From: a virus
Lineage: Duplodnaviria; Caudoviricetes
Reading direction: 5' to 3' (one strand)
Virus record (IMG/VR): IMGVR_UViG_3300042888_002988
Location: 128,001 to 192,000 of that record
DNA length: 64,000 bases
Positions within the stretch are counted from its first letter, which is position 1; every line of letters starts with the position of its first letter. Shown piece after piece: positions 13,112-59,961 of this stretch. A program made the position numbers and the translations under genes. A model generated the notes under the pieces. That model saw only the letters and a list, made by a program, of their open reading frames with translations. It was not told the origin of the DNA and ran no database searches.

Positions 13112-13840
13112 GTGAACCAAGATCTCCCGCCGGTAATTCCGCCAGAAACACCCGAGTCGATCTACGACGCGTGGCGTGTGGATCCCACCCCTGACAACCT
13201 GGGGCGGGTCGTGAAGTCCTTGGACAACACGATCAATTATAAGCTGTCCACCATGGGGATCGGGGACAACCCTCAGATGCGTCACCAGGCCCGCCTGTTT
13301 GCGGCGGACGCGGTCAAGAAGTTCGACCCAGCCTCCGGCACCAATCTCCGCACATGGACGCAGAGCCAGCTCCAGTCGCTGCAGCGCTACCGCCGGGAGT
13401 CGCAGGGGCCGGTGAAGATTCCGGACCGCGCCTCACTGGACGCCTGGACGCTGGAGAAGACCTCGCGCGAGCTGGAGGATGAGCTCGGCTTCGAACCCGA
13501 CGTGAAACAGTTAGCCGACCGTTCTGGGCTTTCGGTCAAACGGATCGCCGCCGTGCGCAAGATCACCCGACCGATGGCCGCCGCCGCGCAGATGTATGAC
13601 GACGGTCAAACGCCGACTGATTTCCTGGGGGAAGCGCTGGAATACATCTACGACACTTCCGACCGCACCGACCGCAAGATCATCGAACTCACGACTGGCT
13701 ACGGCGGCTCACCGGTGATGGCGAAGAATGAGATTGCTCTCAAGCTGGGCATATCGCCGTCGCAGGTCACCCGGCGCGCCGACAGAATTGGCTTCAAGGT
13801 GCAGGAGATGGATCAACAGATCGAGGGGGTGCACGCATGA
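13112..13840 (+). CDS. Phage sigma-70-family factor (FliA/SigB-like)
   Basis: Region 2 AVKKFDPASGTNLRTW, region 3 ELGFEPDVKQLADRSGLS, region 4 HTH NEIALKLGISPSQVTRR. Confidence 0.85.
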   Translation: MNQDLPPVIPPETPESIYDAWRVDPTPDNLGRVVKSLDNTINYKLSTMGIGDNPQMRHQARLFAADAVKKFDPASGTNLRTWTQSQLQSLQRYRRESQGPVKIPDRASLDAWTLEKTSRELEDELGFEPDVKQLADRSGLSVKRIAAVRKITRPMAAAAQMYDDGQTPTDFLGEALEYIYDTSDRTDRKIIELTTGYGGSPVMAKNEIALKLGISPSQVTRRADRIGFKVQEMDQQIEGVHA

Positions 13841-14136: not shown

Positions 14137-14534
14137 AAGCTATAAAAGTCATATTCGGGGGGGCCAACAAGGTGGCTATCGACTGGAACGGTTCAGTTGA
14201 CGGATTGACTGCGGTCGCGCAACGCGCCGGCATCTCGCTGATGACGCAGGAAGGCTCGGACAAGTTCCTGCCAGCGCGCGGCACCAACGTGTCGCGGGTG
14301 CTGTTCAGCTACGGCGCGTTCGATGTCATGGGAATGCAGCACGTGCTCAATTTCGGGGCGTTGAAAGCTCGCAGCGACATGCAAGCCTTCGACGAACCTT
14401 CCCGCGCGCCGGAGGACAGGGTCATCGCGATCCGCACGACGCTGATCACCGTGAAGAACAACGCCGCCCAGGTGGGCGTCACCGTATCCAACCAAGCCGG
14501 GCAGACGACCCGGGCCATCACTGAAATCGAATGA
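14133..14534 (+). CDS. gp25/GPW-like baseplate wedge protein
   Basis: 133 aa, TQEGSDKFLPARGT motif, directly upstream of the J-like gene. Confidence 0.55.
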   Translation: MKAIKVIFGGANKVAIDWNGSVDGLTAVAQRAGISLMTQEGSDKFLPARGTNVSRVLFSYGAFDVMGMQHVLNFGALKARSDMQAFDEPSRAPEDRVIAIRTTLITVKNNAAQVGVTVSNQAGQTTRAITEIE

Positions 14535-16282
14535 ACCTGAGCTTCACCCAAGAATACTACCCGTCCGTCGAGGAACTCACACCAGAGCAGATCACCGCTG
14601 CTCGCGAGCAGATTGTCACCGCCCTGCGGCCGTTCATGCCCGACGTGGACTTGACGCCCGGAACGCCGACGGGTGACTTCGTGGTCACGCCCATGGCGGT
14701 CTACCGCGCCGCAGCTGAGGAAGCCAACAATCGCCTGATGAGCGACCTGGACCTGGCGAACGTCGCGGACGGTCTGATCTACTCGTGCGAGTTCGTCAAA
14801 GCCTACCTCGGCAACTTCGCCGTCTACGATGTCGACAACCTGCGCGCCAGCGGGTTGGTGCGGTTGACTTTCACCAGTCCCCTCGCGAGGGATATCGCCC
14901 GCACCATTCGGTTCCAGTTCAACACCGAGGACGACTGGACGCTGATGGTGGCTGATCCGAATACCACAGTCATCAAGATCCTGCAGGCCGGCAGCGCCCA
15001 TAACGGCCAGCCGGACACCTACGTCCTCGCGCAGACCACAGCGAACACATGGGCCGTTGACGTGCCGGTGGAGGGAGTGCTGAGCGCGCCGATCGAGGCA
15101 GGCACCGCCGGTGCCGCCACCGAAATTGCCACGGATCTCGTCGGGATCGCCGCAGCGATCAAGTTCATGTCCGGCGTGCCGTCCGCGTCGCTCCCCGATC
15201 TGGCCAGGATGGCTCGCAAGATTGCATTCTCAATCACGGCCGGCTCGCGCGCCTCCACGAAAGCACTGGTGTATCGCAACTGGCCCGAGTCCAACATGGT
15301 GTCGCCGGTCGTTCCAGGCGACGACGAGATGCAGCGAATGGCCGCGCTGTCGCCACTGGGACTGCAGTCGCCGGCCGTGGATCTCTACTTCCGCTCGGCG
15401 CGCGACATGCAGCGTGTCACCCAGAACATCCGACTGGATTATGTGAACGCTGCCGGTGCGCCGGCCGCCAAGGTTTTCCGCGGCGTGCTGCCTCTCCTGC
15501 ACCGGCCCTCGCGCATCCTGGGCATCGAGTGGTCCGGAACCTCAACTGAGTCCAAGGTGATCAACTACCGGGTGTTCAGCAAATCCGAGCGCGCCGACCT
15601 TTTCGGAAGTTCGCACTGCGGCACCCGGTTCGAGTCACTGTATGCGCAACTGGTGCCGGTCCTTGACGGCTCCTCCACCCCGCTCATCCCGTTGAGTCAG
15701 GATGTCAACGGGCAATACGCCATCTTCACGATCACCTACGACTGCGACCCGCTGCTGGAGACGGTATCGTCGCTCCTTGAGTCGCCGGAGTATCGACCTG
15801 CGGGCGTGGATGTGCTGGTGAAATCGGGCCCGTTGGTTCTGTTCGAGGACCTGGCCATTACCTACGTCAAGAAACAGGGCGTGAAGACCACGCTCAACAC
15901 CGCGCGTGAACGCATCGTCGAGTATCTGCGCACAGCTGGACACCCGGACGACTTCCGGGTGACGGAGCTTTACGACATCGTCCGCAACGCCGGAGCCGAC
16001 AAGGTGCTGCAGCTGACTGCCTCCGGTCAGATCCTGGTATCGGCCGCGAACAAGCTGTTCCGTGCCGCGGTCACGTCACCGCTGGCGACCGCGAATTGGG
16101 ACACCCCGTCGGACTGGTTGCAGGTCATCCCATTCGTCGCCGTTGAAGAAGTTGCCGCTCCGGCGATCATCATCAACGGTCCCATGTCTCCCGGCGGCCC
16201 GACGGATATCTGGGCGGCCACCAATCGCACGGTGCGCTATGCGACAGACCCCTCAAGCGTGAGATTCATTGAAACCTCCTGA
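14531..16282 (+). CDS. Baseplate J-like (gp6/gp47-type) wedge protein
   Basis: N-terminal DLTPGTPTGDFVVTP; AGTAG and AGSRAS segments typical of J-like proteins; synteny. Confidence 0.6.
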   Translation: MNLSFTQEYYPSVEELTPEQITAAREQIVTALRPFMPDVDLTPGTPTGDFVVTPMAVYRAAAEEANNRLMSDLDLANVADGLIYSCEFVKAYLGNFAVYDVDNLRASGLVRLTFTSPLARDIARTIRFQFNTEDDWTLMVADPNTTVIKILQAGSAHNGQPDTYVLAQTTANTWAVDVPVEGVLSAPIEAGTAGAATEIATDLVGIAAAIKFMSGVPSASLPDLARMARKIAFSITAGSRASTKALVYRNWPESNMVSPVVPGDDEMQRMAALSPLGLQSPAVDLYFRSARDMQRVTQNIRLDYVNAAGAPAAKVFRGVLPLLHRPSRILGIEWSGTSTESKVINYRVFSKSERADLFGSSHCGTRFESLYAQLVPVLDGSSTPLIPLSQDVNGQYAIFTITYDCDPLLETVSSLLESPEYRPAGVDVLVKSGPLVLFEDLAITYVKKQGVKTTLNTARERIVEYLRTAGHPDDFRVTELYDIVRNAGADKVLQLTASGQILVSAANKLFRAAVTSPLATANWDTPSDWLQVIPFVAVEEVAAPAIIINGPMSPGGPTDIWAATNRTVRYATDPSSVRFIETS

Positions 16283-19387: not shown

Positions 19388-20226
19388 GCGACCCTATCGA
19401 AGTCATTGTTCAGGTTCCACCGACAGGCCCTCCCAGCCCGCCGTTGCGGATCGGCATTGGCCCGCCCGGACCTCAAGGGATCCAGGGTGTCAAAGGGGAC
19501 AAAGGTGATACCGGTGACACGGGGTCACAGGGAGCCACCGGACTTCAAGGGATCCAGGGTGTCAAAGGGGACAAAGGTGATACCGGTGCGCAAGGAGCCA
19601 CCGGCCAGCAGGGTATACAGGGGGAACAAGGGCCAGCGCCTTGGACTTTTGTCGGAGCTTACGACAATGGGGCTGACTATGGCTTTAATGCGGCGGTAAC
19701 TTATCAAGGCGGTTTCTACTACAGAACAGGTAACCCAAACAATCCGGGATACCCGCCGACGCCTGGAGCAATCAATGCATCGTGGACGCCTGTTGCCGAC
19801 AGGGGCGAGCAAGGTGCCACTGGTGATGTAGGTCCGCAGGGAGTCAAAGGCGACACTGGCGACATCGGTCCGCAAGGCGCCACTGGCCCGCAGGGTTCCC
19901 AAGGTGACCAGGGTGTCCAAGGAGAGCAAGGTGTCCAAGGAGAACAAGGTATCCAAGGCGACCAAGGCGGTCAGGGTATCCAAGGTGACCAGGGTGCCCA
20001 AGGAGAGCAAGGTGTCCAAGGAGAACAAGGTATCCAAGGCGACCAAGGCGGTCAGGGTATCCAAGGTGACCAGGGCGTGGCTGGGCCAAACGAATTGACA
20101 CAGTATACTTCGAGCGACGGCACTGCTACCTTGCAAATAGATACGCTGGATGCTAATCAAATGACAATAGGCGGACGAGCCGTATCTACCAAGAATTTTA
20201 CCATCGCAATGGCTATCGCATTATGA
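19384..20226 (+). CDS. Collagen-like (Gly-X-Y) fibre protein
   Basis: Long GXY runs around a small globular insert; near-perfect 81-nt duplication 19903-19983/19984-20064. Confidence 0.9.
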   Translation: MSDPIEVIVQVPPTGPPSPPLRIGIGPPGPQGIQGVKGDKGDTGDTGSQGATGLQGIQGVKGDKGDTGAQGATGQQGIQGEQGPAPWTFVGAYDNGADYGFNAAVTYQGGFYYRTGNPNNPGYPPTPGAINASWTPVADRGEQGATGDVGPQGVKGDTGDIGPQGATGPQGSQGDQGVQGEQGVQGEQGIQGDQGGQGIQGDQGAQGEQGVQGEQGIQGDQGGQGIQGDQGVAGPNELTQYTSSDGTATLQIDTLDANQMTIGGRAVSTKNFTIAMAIAL

Positions 20227-47125: not shown

Positions 47126-47608
47126 ATGGATAAGAAGGAAGGACGTCGCAAACCAGGGCGGCCCCTGCTCGACGTCACGGACTTTCCGCACGCCGACTGG
47201 AGCCAGTCAGTGGAGCAGCTTCAGCAAGAGCTGGGCATAGGGCAGCGCGCGGCCTGGCGGCTTCGTCAGGAGGCACGCTCGCTGATCAGGCTACATCATC
47301 CGGAAAAGTTCAAGCCAGCGCGCCCTGGTCGCCGTGGGTATACGGTTGCGGATTTTCCGGGGGTGGACTGGACGTTACCGACAAGCGCGCTGGCTCAGAT
47401 TACCGGGTTGAATCGGGTCATCGTCTACCGTCTACTCAGAGAAGCCGGGGTTGACCCCGGGTCCCGTAAACAGCAACGCCAACACCAATTTCGAAAAGTC
47501 GACAGTCAAACACCAACACCAATCTCGAAAAGTCGACAGTTAAACACCAACACCAATCTCGAAAACCCGGGAGTAAACCACCAAAACGGACAACGCCAAT
47601 CCCGGTAA
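47126..47608 (+). CDS. Protein with two HTH-like repeats; 3' end reads into the iteron repeats
   Basis: DFPHADWS...ELGIGQRAAWRLR and DFPGVDWT...ITGLNRVIVYRLLR. Confidence 0.6.
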   Translation: MDKKEGRRKPGRPLLDVTDFPHADWSQSVEQLQQELGIGQRAAWRLRQEARSLIRLHHPEKFKPARPGRRGYTVADFPGVDWTLPTSALAQITGLNRVIVYRLLREAGVDPGSRKQQRQHQFRKVDSQTPTPISKSRQLNTNTNLENPGVNHQNGQRQSR

Positions 47609-47843
47609 AACGTATGGTGTTTGATTGGTGTTGGTGGTTTTTTGTATTGATTTACAGTGAGTTACAAAAACACCAATCCGGAAAACCCATTTCCTATAGT
47701 AAGAAAAAAAGAATAGACGCGTGCGCGTAGTGTAGGAATTGACTTTTCCGGATTGGTGTTGCTATAAACCCATGGTAATCAACGGATTAAAAAAACCACC
47801 AACGAGCAACACCATACATTTCCGCAGATTGGTGTTGGTGTTT
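47479..47843. other. Putative replication origin (iterons plus AT-rich spacer)
   Basis: 34-bp direct repeats (47479, 47513, partial 47547); CACCAAT in both orientations; 17-bp inverted repeat 47669-47685/47744-47760 flanking an AT-rich tract; lies between dnaB and primase. Confidence 0.7.
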
Positions 47844-55948: not shown

Positions 55949-56210
55949 ATCTGAAAATGCAAAGTTAAGGGCAGCCCTCGAGAAGTTCGTGAGCTGCATC
56001 AACGTCACCGGCGGAATGCTGAAATACGAGTCAGGGAACATCGCCGGATGCGGCGGAGACCCGGAGTGGATCGACTTGTCGGATGCCTACGTGGTGGCTT
56101 GCGAGGCGCTGGGTATTGAGCCCAAGACCCAGCTGGTAGCTGACGACGATTACGAAGGCGGCACCGAGAGCATCTTGGATATAGTTTCGAAGGAGGCATC
56201 GGATGAGTGA
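55941..56210 (+). CDS. Small hypothetical protein
   Basis: Overlaps both neighbours. Confidence 0.55.
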   Translation: MSESENAKLRAALEKFVSCINVTGGMLKYESGNIAGCGGDPEWIDLSDAYVVACEALGIEPKTQLVADDDYEGGTESILDIVSKEASDE

Positions 56211-59200
56211 TCGACCACAGTCACGCCGGGGCATGACCCTGGAAGAACGGCAGCCCGATTACGAGGACCTGTCGAAGTGCCCCAAGACCCTGACGAAGAC
56301 ACGCCACATCGACGACGTGCTCTACGTCGCCGGCCGAGCCCCGATCGAAGGCCAGGCTGAATACGGCGTCATGTTCGTGACGTCGTCCGTCGAGGAGGAG
56401 GAAGCCACCACCGCTGCCAACTCAGTGTTCGGGATGCGGATCACCCAACCCGCGGAATACCTGAAGGGTGCCACCGGCATCATTAAGGACGTCGCACTGC
56501 GGGCTGGCATCGACCTCGACAAGTGCTACTACACCGCGTGCTGCAAATGGCTACTACCCCGGACGCAGCGGGCCAAGCCGGCGAAGAAGATCATGAAGTG
56601 GGGCATGCCGGTGCTGGAAGACGAGATCAAACGGGTGAAGCCGAAGATTATCGTCTGTCTGGGCAAGCACGTGTTCGACATGGTCAGCCCACAGAAGATC
56701 AGCTTCGACGACGCCCACGGCTGCTGGTTCTGGTCGGAGGACTACCAGGCCCACCTCTACGTGATGTATGCCCCCTTCACGCTGGTCGGCAAGCCCGAGT
56801 TCTACGAGACGTTCCGCGTCGACTTCAAGGAGGTCGCACGGCGGAAGGAGATCCTCGACAACGGTGGCTCGATTACCGGCCGACCCTTCCAGCACCAGGT
56901 CATCCGCGACATGGACGCTCTGGAGGACTGGCTCGACCACATCGAGACGCTTGTGGAGGAAGACCGCTGGCCGGGGCATAAGGACGAGAACGGGCACCCG
57001 CTGCTGGCGGTGGACTGTGAATGGCACGGTCGAACCCACGTCGACGGCAAGCTGCGCACGATCCAGTTCGCCTGGTCGGAGACGGATGCCGTGGTGATCG
57101 AGTTCCGGGACGAGAAGACGGAGTGGAGCTTTGAGATGGGTAGCTGCGAGGACCTGCCGCCGCTCGATCCGGAAAATCCGCTGGCCGTTAAATTGAATGG
57201 AATGCTGAGCGACCTGGATTTGGCGAACGTCGCGGATGGCCTGATCGACTCGCGTGATTTCGTTGAAGCCTACCTCGGCAACTTCGATCCGGAGCTGGAA
57301 ACGAAAAGTAGGAGCGATATTGACAACGGCAAATTGAAGCTGGGGAAGGAGTTCACGGTCCACATGATCACCATGGGAAGCGACACGTGCGCTGTCTGCG
57401 GCGAGGAAGAATGCGACCACCTGCGCGTGAATCGCAACGGCGACGCTATCGCCCCGGATGCGTTCCGGCAGATGCCACGCGGCCCGTCCGAGTATCAGCC
57501 ACCACCAGCCGATCGTATCGCCCAGCGCATGGCAGAACTGGAGCTGGAACACCGCGCCCGCTACAAGGCAATCGGCAAGCGTCTCAACCACACCACGGAG
57601 AAGATCAAAGCCCGTTACATCGGTCACCACTACGCGGCTGACGCCCCGTGGATGAGCCACACCCTGGGGATGGAGATCTACCAACGCTGCGAGCTGGACA
57701 CCGAGTTCGCCCAGCAGACCGTGGACGAGTCCAGCGAGCTGGGACTGGAGCGTGGCATCGCGATGAAGTACACGAACCTGGGTCGCTACGACTATGACCT
57801 GATGATGTGGAAGCGGGAGAACAAGGAACTCTGCAAGGGCGGCTACGGCTTCATCCCGTCAAAGATCATCCACCCATACGGCGCAGCTGACGTCATCACA
57901 CCATACCGGGCCTACCCGATGATCAAGCGGCAGCTGGAGGCCCAACGTCTGTGGGCCTACTACAGGGACATCTTCAACCCGTTCGTCACGGACGTCTTCA
58001 CCGAATTCACGATGACCGGGCTACCGATGGACGTGGACACGATGAACGACCTACGGGACCTGTTCACGTTCACGAAGGACCGCCTCAACAAGAAGCTGAA
58101 GCTCAGGATCGCCAAGGAGGCTACCCAGAAGCTCAAGCGCAAGCTCATGCAGACGTTCGGCGTGATGGCTGCCAAGGTCTGCTCAGTGACGATCGACGCC
58201 CGCAACGCCGAGATGCTCCGCAACACGGTGAAGCAGCTGCTGCTCGATACCGGCAAGCTGGTGGACGTCCCCAAGTGGAACAAGATCATCGCTCACTGGG
58301 AAGAGGCACCAGCGTTCAACATCCGATCCCCTGACCAGATGGCCAGGTGGCTGTTCGACTTCGAGGAGCTCATCCCGATCAAGTCCACCAACCAGAAAGC
58401 CAAGGGCCTTCCCAGCATGGCGTGGGAGAAGGTGCTGGAGCTTCCAGCCGACCGCCAGGCGATGTTCAAGCCGGCCGTAGACAAGCAGACGCTCGCGATC
58501 CTCTCGGAGCAGCTGCCGGCGATCGACGAGCTTCTGAATTTGAATGCCGTCGGCAACTTGTCGAAGGCATTCCTCAAGGAGCCGGACGTTTACGTCGACG
58601 AGGATACCGGTGAGGAAGTGACCGAGGAACACGGGCTGCATGCATGGCTCGCAAGTGATGGTAGGGTGCACGGACAGATGTCGGCCACGGAAACTGGTAG
58701 ACCTCGCAGTTGGGCCCCGAACACACTCAACTGGCCATCCTATGTCAACAAGAGAGTTGCTATATCGGTGGCTACTTGCGTGCAGGAAGCATTCGAAGAA
58801 GGTGACTTGCCGGAAAATCTACTGAAGTGGGTTGGAGCTACACCAGATGACTTGCCTTCTATCAGATCATGTGTTAAGGTGCCCGAGGGATGGATAGCCG
58901 TCGAATCCGATTATGCAACTGCGGAGATGGTTGCACTTGCTATCATATCAGGTGACAAAGACTTAATGCGTATCTTGTTCGATCCGGATCCTGAATGGGC
59001 CGTGTTAAAGCATAAGAAGCACGGAGCGTCGGTGGTGCGAGTAGCATTCACCGATCCAAAACTTTCAGGCGTCCCGGAGAGCGCGCGAAGCAACAAGTTC
59101 CTGATGCATGTGTGGGCGGCAGGTGAATGCCTTGGACCAGTGGATGATTCTGATCTGCTGCGGGACAATGACGGCAACATTGTGCATGCCAAGTATGACA

Positions 59201-59961
59201 TTCACTGGTCGCTGGTGGAGCGCACCTACGGCAAGTATCGCGAGATGATGAAGGCCAAGGTCGATCGCAACGCCGCCAAGGTCCTCAACTTCTCCAGTGC
59301 CTACGGTGCTTCTAGTAGTTCGCTGGAGCGCAAGATCGAATCCGACACAGGCGTCAAGCCCGAGGAAGGAACCGGCGAACGCGGACTGGAAGCCATTCGG
59401 GAACGCCAGCCCCGGGCGACAGAGTTTCTGGAGGAGATGGCCAAGGTGCCGAAGGAGCGCGGAATGTATCGCGCCGCTTCCGGTCGCATCCGGCACTGCC
59501 TGTCACACTCGGCAGGTAGCGGAGTCGGCTGGCGCCAACGCAACTCGATCGACAGCGCGCTGGGCCGGGAGATGCGGAACTTTCCCATGCAGGAGTCCGT
59601 CGGCGCCACGTCGGCTCGGGCGTGCAAATGGCTGCTCAAGGCCTACCGCAAGCTCAAGCTGCAGGCGCGCCCGCTGACCTGTCTCTATGACTCTGTGGTG
59701 ACGATCTGCCCACTGGAGGAACGCTTCTTGGTTGCCCGGCTTCACCAGCTATGCATGTCGGTCCACAACACCTGGGCCTACAGCGATGACTACGGGGATC
59801 GGACGCTGACCTATACGATCGACAACGAGTTCAATTACCGATGGTCCACCCGTCCGAGCGACGAAGACCAGAAGCAGTTGGATGACCGCACCTGGCACGC
59901 GCCGGACAGCAAGTTGACGTTCTTGGAGCAGCACGCAAATCTGTGGCAGTTGGTGTCATAA
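56203..59961 (+). CDS. polA: Family A DNA polymerase with N-terminal UDG-like domain and 3'-5' exonuclease
   Basis: UDG-like CYYTACCK and IVCLGK; Exo DCEW, HYAAD, YGAAD; Pol motif A SDYATAE, motif B AKVLNFSSAYG, RNFPMQ, motif C LYDS. Confidence 0.93.
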   Translation: MSDRPQSRRGMTLEERQPDYEDLSKCPKTLTKTRHIDDVLYVAGRAPIEGQAEYGVMFVTSSVEEEEATTAANSVFGMRITQPAEYLKGATGIIKDVALRAGIDLDKCYYTACCKWLLPRTQRAKPAKKIMKWGMPVLEDEIKRVKPKIIVCLGKHVFDMVSPQKISFDDAHGCWFWSEDYQAHLYVMYAPFTLVGKPEFYETFRVDFKEVARRKEILDNGGSITGRPFQHQVIRDMDALEDWLDHIETLVEEDRWPGHKDENGHPLLAVDCEWHGRTHVDGKLRTIQFAWSETDAVVIEFRDEKTEWSFEMGSCEDLPPLDPENPLAVKLNGMLSDLDLANVADGLIDSRDFVEAYLGNFDPELETKSRSDIDNGKLKLGKEFTVHMITMGSDTCAVCGEEECDHLRVNRNGDAIAPDAFRQMPRGPSEYQPPPADRIAQRMAELELEHRARYKAIGKRLNHTTEKIKARYIGHHYAADAPWMSHTLGMEIYQRCELDTEFAQQTVDESSELGLERGIAMKYTNLGRYDYDLMMWKRENKELCKGGYGFIPSKIIHPYGAADVITPYRAYPMIKRQLEAQRLWAYYRDIFNPFVTDVFTEFTMTGLPMDVDTMNDLRDLFTFTKDRLNKKLKLRIAKEATQKLKRKLMQTFGVMAAKVCSVTIDARNAEMLRNTVKQLLLDTGKLVDVPKWNKIIAHWEEAPAFNIRSPDQMARWLFDFEELIPIKSTNQKAKGLPSMAWEKVLELPADRQAMFKPAVDKQTLAILSEQLPAIDELLNLNAVGNLSKAFLKEPDVYVDEDTGEEVTEEHGLHAWLASDGRVHGQMSATETGRPRSWAPNTLNWPSYVNKRVAISVATCVQEAFEEGDLPENLLKWVGATPDDLPSIRSCVKVPEGWIAVESDYATAEMVALAIISGDKDLMRILFDPDPEWAVLKHKKHGASVVRVAFTDPKLSGVPESARSNKFLMHVWAAGECLGPVDDSDLLRDNDGNIVHAKYDIHWSLVERTYGKYREMMKAKVDRNAAKVLNFSSAYGASSSSLERKIESDTGVKPEEGTGERGLEAIRERQPRATEFLEEMAKVPKERGMYRAASGRIRHCLSHSAGSGVGWRQRNSIDSALGREMRNFPMQESVGATSARACKWLLKAYRKLKLQARPLTCLYDSVVTICPLEERFLVARLHQLCMSVHNTWAYSDDYGDRTLTYTIDNEFNYRWSTRPSDEDQKQLDDRTWHAPDSKLTFLEQHANLWQLVS

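Follow-up and report, generated by a model that had tools for sequence, protein, structure and literature searches.

Why should a phage carry the same short peptide in a structural protein and in its replicative DNA polymerase? The question is raised by a stretch of 64,000 nt (hereafter the window), which corresponds to positions 128001–192000 of the 200,158-bp virus record IMGVR_UViG_3300042888_002988 (Caudoviricetes; rated complete) and in which a segment of a baseplate wedge gene recurs within the gene encoding a UDG-fused family A DNA polymerase. The repeat was initially described in a reading of the window made without database searches (the sequence-only reading), which offered two explanations, namely molecular mimicry that would allow the polymerase to dock on a baseplate partner, or a tolerated ectopic recombination scar. 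The comparisons described below favor the latter, and the polymerase copy is probably the product of a tolerated short-patch ectopic templated replacement, in which the phage's own baseplate gene supplied the sequence of a loop in the polymerase. For the molecular route we infer either annealing of the kind known from SPDIR (short-patch double illegitimate recombination) or a template switch during replication, and for the patch itself a neutral or near-neutral status.

The Repeat and its Occurrence in Nature

The core of the repeat is found at window positions 14741–14818 in the baseplate gene and 57208–57285 in the polymerase gene, where 68 of 78 nt and 22 of 26 encoded amino acids are identical, and the match can be followed for a further 12 nt upstream (14729–14819 versus 57196–57286; 77/91 nt, 85%). 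Both copies are located on the + strand and are in frame within long open reading frames (ORFs) at 14531–16282 and 56203–59961. The coordinates, identities, shared strand and in-frame status given by the sequence-only reading were all confirmed, and its labels for the two genes (J-like baseplate protein and DNA polymerase) were right in substance, the former being a gp6/J-like wedge protein and the latter a family A polymerase. The match has an expectation value (E) of 1.8e-24 in a search of the genome and of 6.5e-21 in a blastn comparison of the whole 200,158-bp genome with itself. This self-comparison detected only two dispersed repeats, the baseplate/polymerase pair and a 181-nt terminal repeat, and since the repeat has just two copies, membership of a regulatory repeat family can be ruled out. 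Beyond the tract, similarity between the two genes is non-significant in shuffling tests (P = 0.10 downstream and 0.15 upstream), and the wider homology that MAFFT alignments appeared to offer past the patch (DVDN..TFT/DIDN..EFT downstream, DLTPGTP/DLPPLDP upstream) was rejected on these values. A further likeness, DPELETKS/DPLLETVS, involving baseplate residues 406–413 (15/24 nt, P = 0.37), is attributable to chance.

At least five contigs, from assemblies of JGI and NCBI, encode exactly this polymerase protein, and two NCBI assemblies have the gene without a single base difference. Contigs assembled from runs of four lake or freshwater studies (X3–X6; 2020–2025) show zero differences over the patch, those of X3, X4, and X5 spanning it together with both flanks, and the baseplate copy was assembled separately from the same runs with flanks of its own. 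Misassembly, which the sequence-only reading had flagged for checking, is therefore excluded by contigs of independent studies that cover the two loci separately and leave the patch unchanged; the patch is real, and stable in nature.

Direction of Transfer and Identity of the Donor

The conserved motif is present in 55/55 baseplate homologues. The baseplate-like stretch was not found in six IMG/VR relatives of the polymerase (46–75% identical), which lack the entire 52-aa block that surrounds it (see below), and among the 120 database polymerase homologues listed it occurs only in the window's own cluster. A degenerate DNA pattern for the motif, searched for in IMG/VR, recovered three known baseplate relatives only and no second polymerase copy. 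Because the motif has been kept in all baseplate homologues and is confined to one polymerase cluster, the ancestral copy is that of the baseplate gene, and that of the polymerase is derived. Alignment of polymerase and J homologues, which the sequence-only reading had suggested as a means of deciding between the two copies, thus identifies the J copy as the older one and finds the polymerase insert not conserved among relatives.

The donor can be specified further. The polymerase copy differs at 10–11 of 78 nt from baseplate genes of its own clade (those of the window, L018, and L019), versus 16–21 of 78 nt from genes farther removed, and it agrees with the own-clade genes in codon choice. 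Given these fewest differences and the shared codon choices, the donor was the baseplate gene of the same phage lineage or of a very close relative.

The Nearest Relative and the Junctions

The nearest polymerase to that of the window (P0002) is P0004, encoded on contig L016, which is 88% identical overall. Right beside the patch, the window and L016 are ∼96–97% identical in DNA, and the flanking protein sequence agrees to the left and to the right; exactly between these conserved flanks, the 30-aa patch of the window is matched in position by an unrelated 31-aa stretch in L016. Set side by side, the baseplate gene and the polymerase genes of the window and L016 delimit the derived copy of the baseplate segment to a maximal tract of 91 nt (57196–57286, + strand), of which 68 nt (57213–57280) are attributable to the donor alone. 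A proposal that the L016-type stretch represents an older copy of the baseplate motif was unsupported (P = 0.39).

Short sequences common to donor, recipient, and the L016-type stretch mark both ends of the tract (+ strand), viz. an extended microhomology, AGCGA(C/G)CTGGA(C/T), at the left junction (57208–57219) and a microhomology, ACTTCG, at the right (57281–57286). Donor and L016-type sequence agree at 11/12 positions on the left and 6/6 on the right, which constitutes true microhomology only if the L016-type sequence is the state that preceded the event. The polarity at the site is unrooted, the 52-aa block being known from two lineages only; whichever polarity holds, the sequence came from the baseplate gene and ended up in the polymerase loop. 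Donor and recipient read the junction matches in one and the same codon phase (Ser-Asp/Glu-Leu-Asp on the left and Asn/Asp-Phe on the right), so that the frame would have been preserved by the event itself, and the shared frame consequently says nothing about function.

The Recipient Site

The patch is situated in a hypervariable spacer that extends from Exo I to Exo II (residues 311–453; 57133–57561, + strand), as defined by alignments and by the lengths observed in 60 homologues. In these proteins the spacer measures between 3 and 172 aa (median 18.5; 143 in P0002), and the Exo segments beside it are constant at 40–41 and 76–77 aa. Residues 329–380 of the spacer (57187–57342, + strand) form the 52-aa block, which according to the alignments is common only to the window polymerase and its nearest relative. 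A structural model of residues 1–660 assigned a predicted local distance difference test (pLDDT) score of 27–42 to residues 331–393, and of >90 to the UDG and exonuclease domains.

Two other differences between the window and L016 were noted in this part of the gene. A 21-nt indel at 57460–57480, inside the spacer, is located between TTCCG-type direct repeats and is slippage-like, and at 57575–57600 a block that was placed in the same spacer has been replaced with a 30-nt difference in length. Searches of the genome with blastn-short and tblastn did not find donors elsewhere for the L016-type blocks or for the extra spacer differences, and the missing donors for the L016-type blocks leave nothing to indicate a cassette system.

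Divergence since Copying

The ten differences in the core comprise five purely synonymous codons, four amino acid changes (Y>D, C>R, E>D, and K>E), and one silent third-position change in the C>R codon, which by the Nei-Gojobori method amount to six synonymous and four non-synonymous changes (synonymous divergence, dS, 0.44; non-synonymous divergence, dN, 0.07; dN/dS ∼0.16). When the differences are polarized on the baseplate genes of relatives, all four amino acid changes and most of the silent ones fall on the polymerase copy, in which Y84, a position that is aromatic in 55/55 baseplates, has become Asp, and C86, Cys in 55/55, has become Arg. The substitutions Y84D and C86R are those expected of a formerly buried segment adapting to a solvent-exposed loop, and not of a mimic.

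A test of neutrality returned P = 0.016 when transitions and transversions were weighted equally, and P = 0.06–0.14 with a transition bias like that observed (8/10 differences are transitions). The hint of conservation at the protein level that was seen in the sequence-only reading therefore stands with respect to the excess of synonymous changes (6:4), while its significance is borderline. In six of the ten differences the polymerase copy has a C-to-T change on the coding strand, a pattern that resembles deamination of single-stranded DNA, although the numbers are too few to interpret.

The dS between the window and L016 polymerases is 0.36–0.38, which is of the same order as that between copy and donor (0.44). 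From the similarity of these values, the copying event is roughly as old as the separation of the window and L016 lineages, and an unusual mutation process need not be invoked. An apparent excess in the age of the patch relative to its flanks vanished once dS was taken over the whole polymerase (0.36–0.38 versus 0.44).

Alternative Explanations

That the repeat is an artefact, in the form of an assembly chimera or a chance match, or reflects programmed diversification through the template/variable pair of a diversity-generating retroelement (DGR), is scarcely credible. Two like repeats of ∼80–90 nt on the same strand superficially recall a DGR pair or a collapse by the assembler, but the copies differ at ten positions and are each set in continuous, homologous flanks of their own, upon which independent assemblies and all four studies agree, and a match of this quality would arise by chance with an E of about 1e-21. 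A DGR was rejected as a candidate in view of the positions of the differences, 1/10 of which is at an adenine of the baseplate copy and 0/10 at an adenine of the polymerase copy; a search of the 200-kb genome for a reverse transcriptase (PF00078) found none. The other explanations accept the copying event and invoke selection. Functional exaptation, or mimicry, supposes that the polymerase shows the wedge motif in order to bind a partner of the wedge protein (the second J-like copy, or the 133-aa or 509-aa protein encoded on either side of the wedge gene) or a host factor, with the consequence that replication would be coupled to assembly or the polymerase packaged. The copied piece is indeed the most conserved stretch of the wedge protein, it is modelled less confidently than its surroundings in the wedge monomer (pLDDT 72–73, then <50), as interface segments often are, its synonymous changes outnumber the non-synonymous ones (6:4, P = 0.016–0.14), and the patch is unchanged in lake samples dated from 2020 to 2025. 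A shared interaction motif, however, should keep its invariant residues and be conserved among the relatives of the recipient. Here the always-aromatic position 84 and the invariant Cys86 have both become charged residues, the insert is restricted to a single lineage and absent from all other relatives, and even the nearest of them has unrelated sequence at the site. Moreover, the patch region of the polymerase is modelled without confidence and only 26–30 residues were copied, without the other N-terminal helices of the wedge protein. The docking envisaged in the sequence-only reading is consequently very unlikely, the copy having lost C86, which the baseplate family keeps invariant, and the near-invariant aromatic Y84. 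When polymerase residues 318–400 were co-folded with the 133-aa protein and with the first 130 residues of both the wedge protein and the 509-aa protein, the score was 0.00 and the partner pLDDT values were 30–37, which speaks neither for nor against binding. Most unlikely, too, is a non-neutral reading in which the wedge protein's core helix-turn-helix motif was captured by a variable arm of the exonuclease domain and then kept by purifying selection; if true, the motif would serve as a handle for wedge partners that links replication to tail assembly or carries the polymerase into virions, or alternatively as an early-expressed decoy for a host sensor of the conserved structural motif.

A selected replacement would have the same mechanism as the templated replacement favored here, with fixation that was adaptive instead of neutral. 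The L016-type stretch would have suffered a break, or come under attack from a host defence that recognizes a sequence (a CRISPR spacer, for example) or an epitope, and a variant repaired from the baseplate gene would have escaped and swept. The complete swap of ∼30 codons between near-identical flanks is in keeping with such a history, as are the two additional block differences in the same spacer and the wild variation of the spacer across the family, but relaxed constraint alone predicts the same pattern and the missing donor for the L016-type blocks gives no indication of a cassette system, so that adaptive fixation is considered unlikely. Tolerated, neutral replacement has its own difficulties. 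The low pLDDT of residues 331–393 may reflect only a shallow alignment at a lineage-specific block, and the excess of silent changes in the aligned copies can be taken as a hint, at most, that the peptide is under some constraint. Between the window and L016, dN/dS is low in the remainder of the spacer as well, which implies that over short times the loop is itself under some constraint. In addition, a baseplate-type patch could have been overwritten later by the L016-type stretch, and the junction matches would then be remnants.

Proposed Mechanism and Relationship to Known Systems

For the tolerated templated replacement, the following course of events is proposed. A single-stranded piece of the phage's own gp6/J-like gene, or a nascent strand copied from it, would anneal at short matches in the polymerase gene and be copied or integrated during replication or break repair, thereby overwriting ∼70–90 nt of the lineage-specific surface insertion between Exo I and Exo II. 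The polymerase would be left intact, the in-frame junction matches keeping the reading frame, and the patch would not be purged because the site tolerates almost any sequence and length. Subsequent drift would account for the 10 changes in 78 nt and for the conversion of two buried, conserved baseplate residues to charged ones.

The replacements produced by SPDIR measure 3 to about 100 bp and occur at microhomologies, either simple or extended (bioRxiv 10.1101/2023.11.22.568220). Comparison of the window with L016 likewise reveals a short tract, within this size range, that has been swapped between collinear flanks, and the identifiable donor (14729–14819) is unrelated to the recipient outside the tract. 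As in SPDIR, a heterologous tract from elsewhere in the genome replaces one of like size; the crossovers of SPDIR lie at microhomologies or at extended, mismatch-bearing ones (bioRxiv 10.1101/2023.11.22.568220), and those of the patch would do so too if the L016-type stretch is the earlier state. Unlike the present case, SPDIR was defined experimentally in Acinetobacter baylyi from very rare events selected with a reporter, whereas the polymerase patch is a natural event in a phage, 13% diverged and apparently fixed in a wild population. Template switching between diverged sequences has also been described during break-induced replication (PMC4215184), and switching of the microhomology-mediated break-induced replication (MMBIR) type, in which a strand leaves its template, copies a short ectopic stretch, and returns, with microhomology at both switch points, may resemble the event considered here. 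It differs in that the sequence of the polymerase site gives no sign of a break or stalled fork. A double template switch during recombination-dependent replication would fit as well as SPDIR does, the junction sequences being compatible with either route and unable to separate them. Recombination-dependent replication of large phages resembles break-induced replication. A break made by a homing endonuclease was rejected as the trigger, given that the LAGLIDADG domains of homologues are positioned ∼200 codons downstream of the patch.

In the classical view, the mosaic joints of tailed phages arise from illegitimate recombination at short conserved sequences. Like such joints and templated mutations, the polymerase patch consists of tens of bases that passed in frame from one gene of a phage genome to another, unrelated one, into a flexible or variable segment. 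It differs from them in that an essential structural protein contributed its most conserved motif to a replicative polymerase, and in that a close relative keeps the alternative state of the site, which allows the tract to be delimited to within a few bases. The scar interpretation of the sequence-only reading has held up, on the strength of an ancestral baseplate copy, a lineage-specific polymerase copy, a like-length swap between identical flanks, ends at putative microhomologies, and a hypervariable loop of low model confidence.

The Donor Gene

The donor gene (P0001; 14531–16282, + strand) encodes a 583-aa protein that is predicted from its AlphaFold model and Foldseek matches to be a baseplate wedge protein of the gp6/gpJ/Mu gp47 class. 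The model, built on 55 homologues, has a pLDDT of 84.9 and matches wedge chains from the baseplates of Pa193, XM1, phi812, Mu, T4 (gp6; 5iv5 A/B), and AFP, with E values of 1e-10 to 1e-5 and a probability of 1.00. The TM-scores are low (0.16–0.29), as expected for a flexible multi-domain protein. Comparison with Pfam (E up to 0.01) detected no family, Baseplate_J included, and a weak PHROG match was obtained over residues 407–498 (phrog_6, “baseplate wedge subunit”; E 3e-6). The assignment of P0001 as a gp6/J-like wedge protein is based on its modelled fold and on gene order; it is flanked by an overlapping 133-aa gene upstream and an abutting 509-aa gene downstream, neither of which yielded a family match. 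The baseplate gene had no match, by blastn or tblastn, among 50,697 GenBank phage records.

The donor repeat copy (14729–14819, + strand) encodes residues 67–96 in its extended form and residues 71–96 in its core (14741–14818). In an alignment of the 55 homologues, which extend down to 27% identity, residues 68–96 are the best-conserved stretch of the whole wedge protein. R68, S71, D72, C86, V89, L93, and N95 are invariant and most of the other positions are >90% conserved.

Upstream of the baseplate module, window positions 13112–13840 encode a 242-aa sigma-factor-like protein (Sigma70_r3 plus a winged-helix helix-turn-helix domain; phrog_351) that is a candidate late-gene sigma factor, and between this gene and the 133-aa gene there is one 99-aa ORF only. 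Downstream of the baseplate genes, a presumed fiber gene contains long runs of a 9-nt-periodic Gly-X-Y (collagen-like) repeat (19466–20093).

The Recipient Gene

The recipient gene (P0002; 56203–59961, + strand) encodes a protein of 1252 aa that, on the basis of Pfam, PHROG, and structural model comparisons, combines a UDG-superfamily domain, 3′-5′ exonuclease motifs, and PolA palm and fingers in one chain. Pfam matches were obtained to UDG (residues 41–195), DNA_pol_A_exo1, and DNA_pol_A, and a PHROG match to phrog_17 (DNA polymerase; E 1e-48). The model of residues 1–660 matches a family-4 UDG (1ui1; TM 0.75) and, at the level of the whole model, the phiLo family A polymerase 9qhs_A (Foldseek E 1.7e-7). 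The Exo residues D271, E273, D480, Y559, and D563 are invariant in the 60 homologues.

Among SPO1-like and SP15-like phages, family A polymerases are known that are fused to a UDG and bear large insertions of poor conservation (Missoury et al., 2026; PMC13697223). The SP15-like subgroup is characterized by three such additions, Insert 1, Insert 2, and a C-terminal extension, whose positions have been described for phiLo and YerA41. P0002 has the same domain order as the SPO1-like and SP15-like enzymes (family-4-like UDG, 3′-5′ exonuclease, PolA) and, like those of the SP15-like phages, carries large, poorly conserved insertions (PMC13697223). Its sequence is only remotely similar to those of known phages. 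Among the 50,697 GenBank phage records only partial matches of 21–23% identity were found, including CP-51 and SP-10 (21–22% over part of the protein), and P0002 had no sequence match to the solved UDG-PolA chains.

Many homologues of P0002 (including P0008, P0023, P0033, P0055, and P0057) are 1400–2000 aa in length and contain LAGLIDADG_2 domains at ∼553–720, after Exo II, which probably represent inteins or homing endonucleases; P0002 itself is without a LAGLIDADG_2 domain. On contig L016 (12592–15571), the polymerase frame diverges at approximately codon 820 and stops at codon 863, and is followed by two genes with tyrosine-recombinase-like matches (458 and 443 aa), which suggests that a mobile element has been inserted or that this is a rearranged copy. 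L016 also carries HipA, AbiE, and helix-turn-helix genes upstream.

Other Features of the Genome

Three tandem 45-nt units, 34 nt apart, are present at window positions 47475–47587 and are followed at 47647–47782 by a 55-nt imperfect inverted repeat (75% complementary, with a 26-nt loop). The region 47475–47782 looks like an iteron/origin or regulatory region. The ends of the record repeat one another over 181 nt (1–181 versus 199978–200158 of the record, G000; 99.4% identical), and the record is classed as “linear”; the end repeat fits either an assembly closed into a circle or a terminal repeat.

Implications

The mutation is of a known kind that is unusually well resolved here, and it opens no long-standing question. 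It provides a well-delimited natural example in which ∼30 codons of an essential gene were rewritten in one step with the gene unbroken, for which a donor from the phage's own clade can be named, and the age of which is comparable with the divergence of the flanks. For the annotation of such genomes it carries a caution, in that a structural and a replication protein may have a peptide in common without having a function in common.

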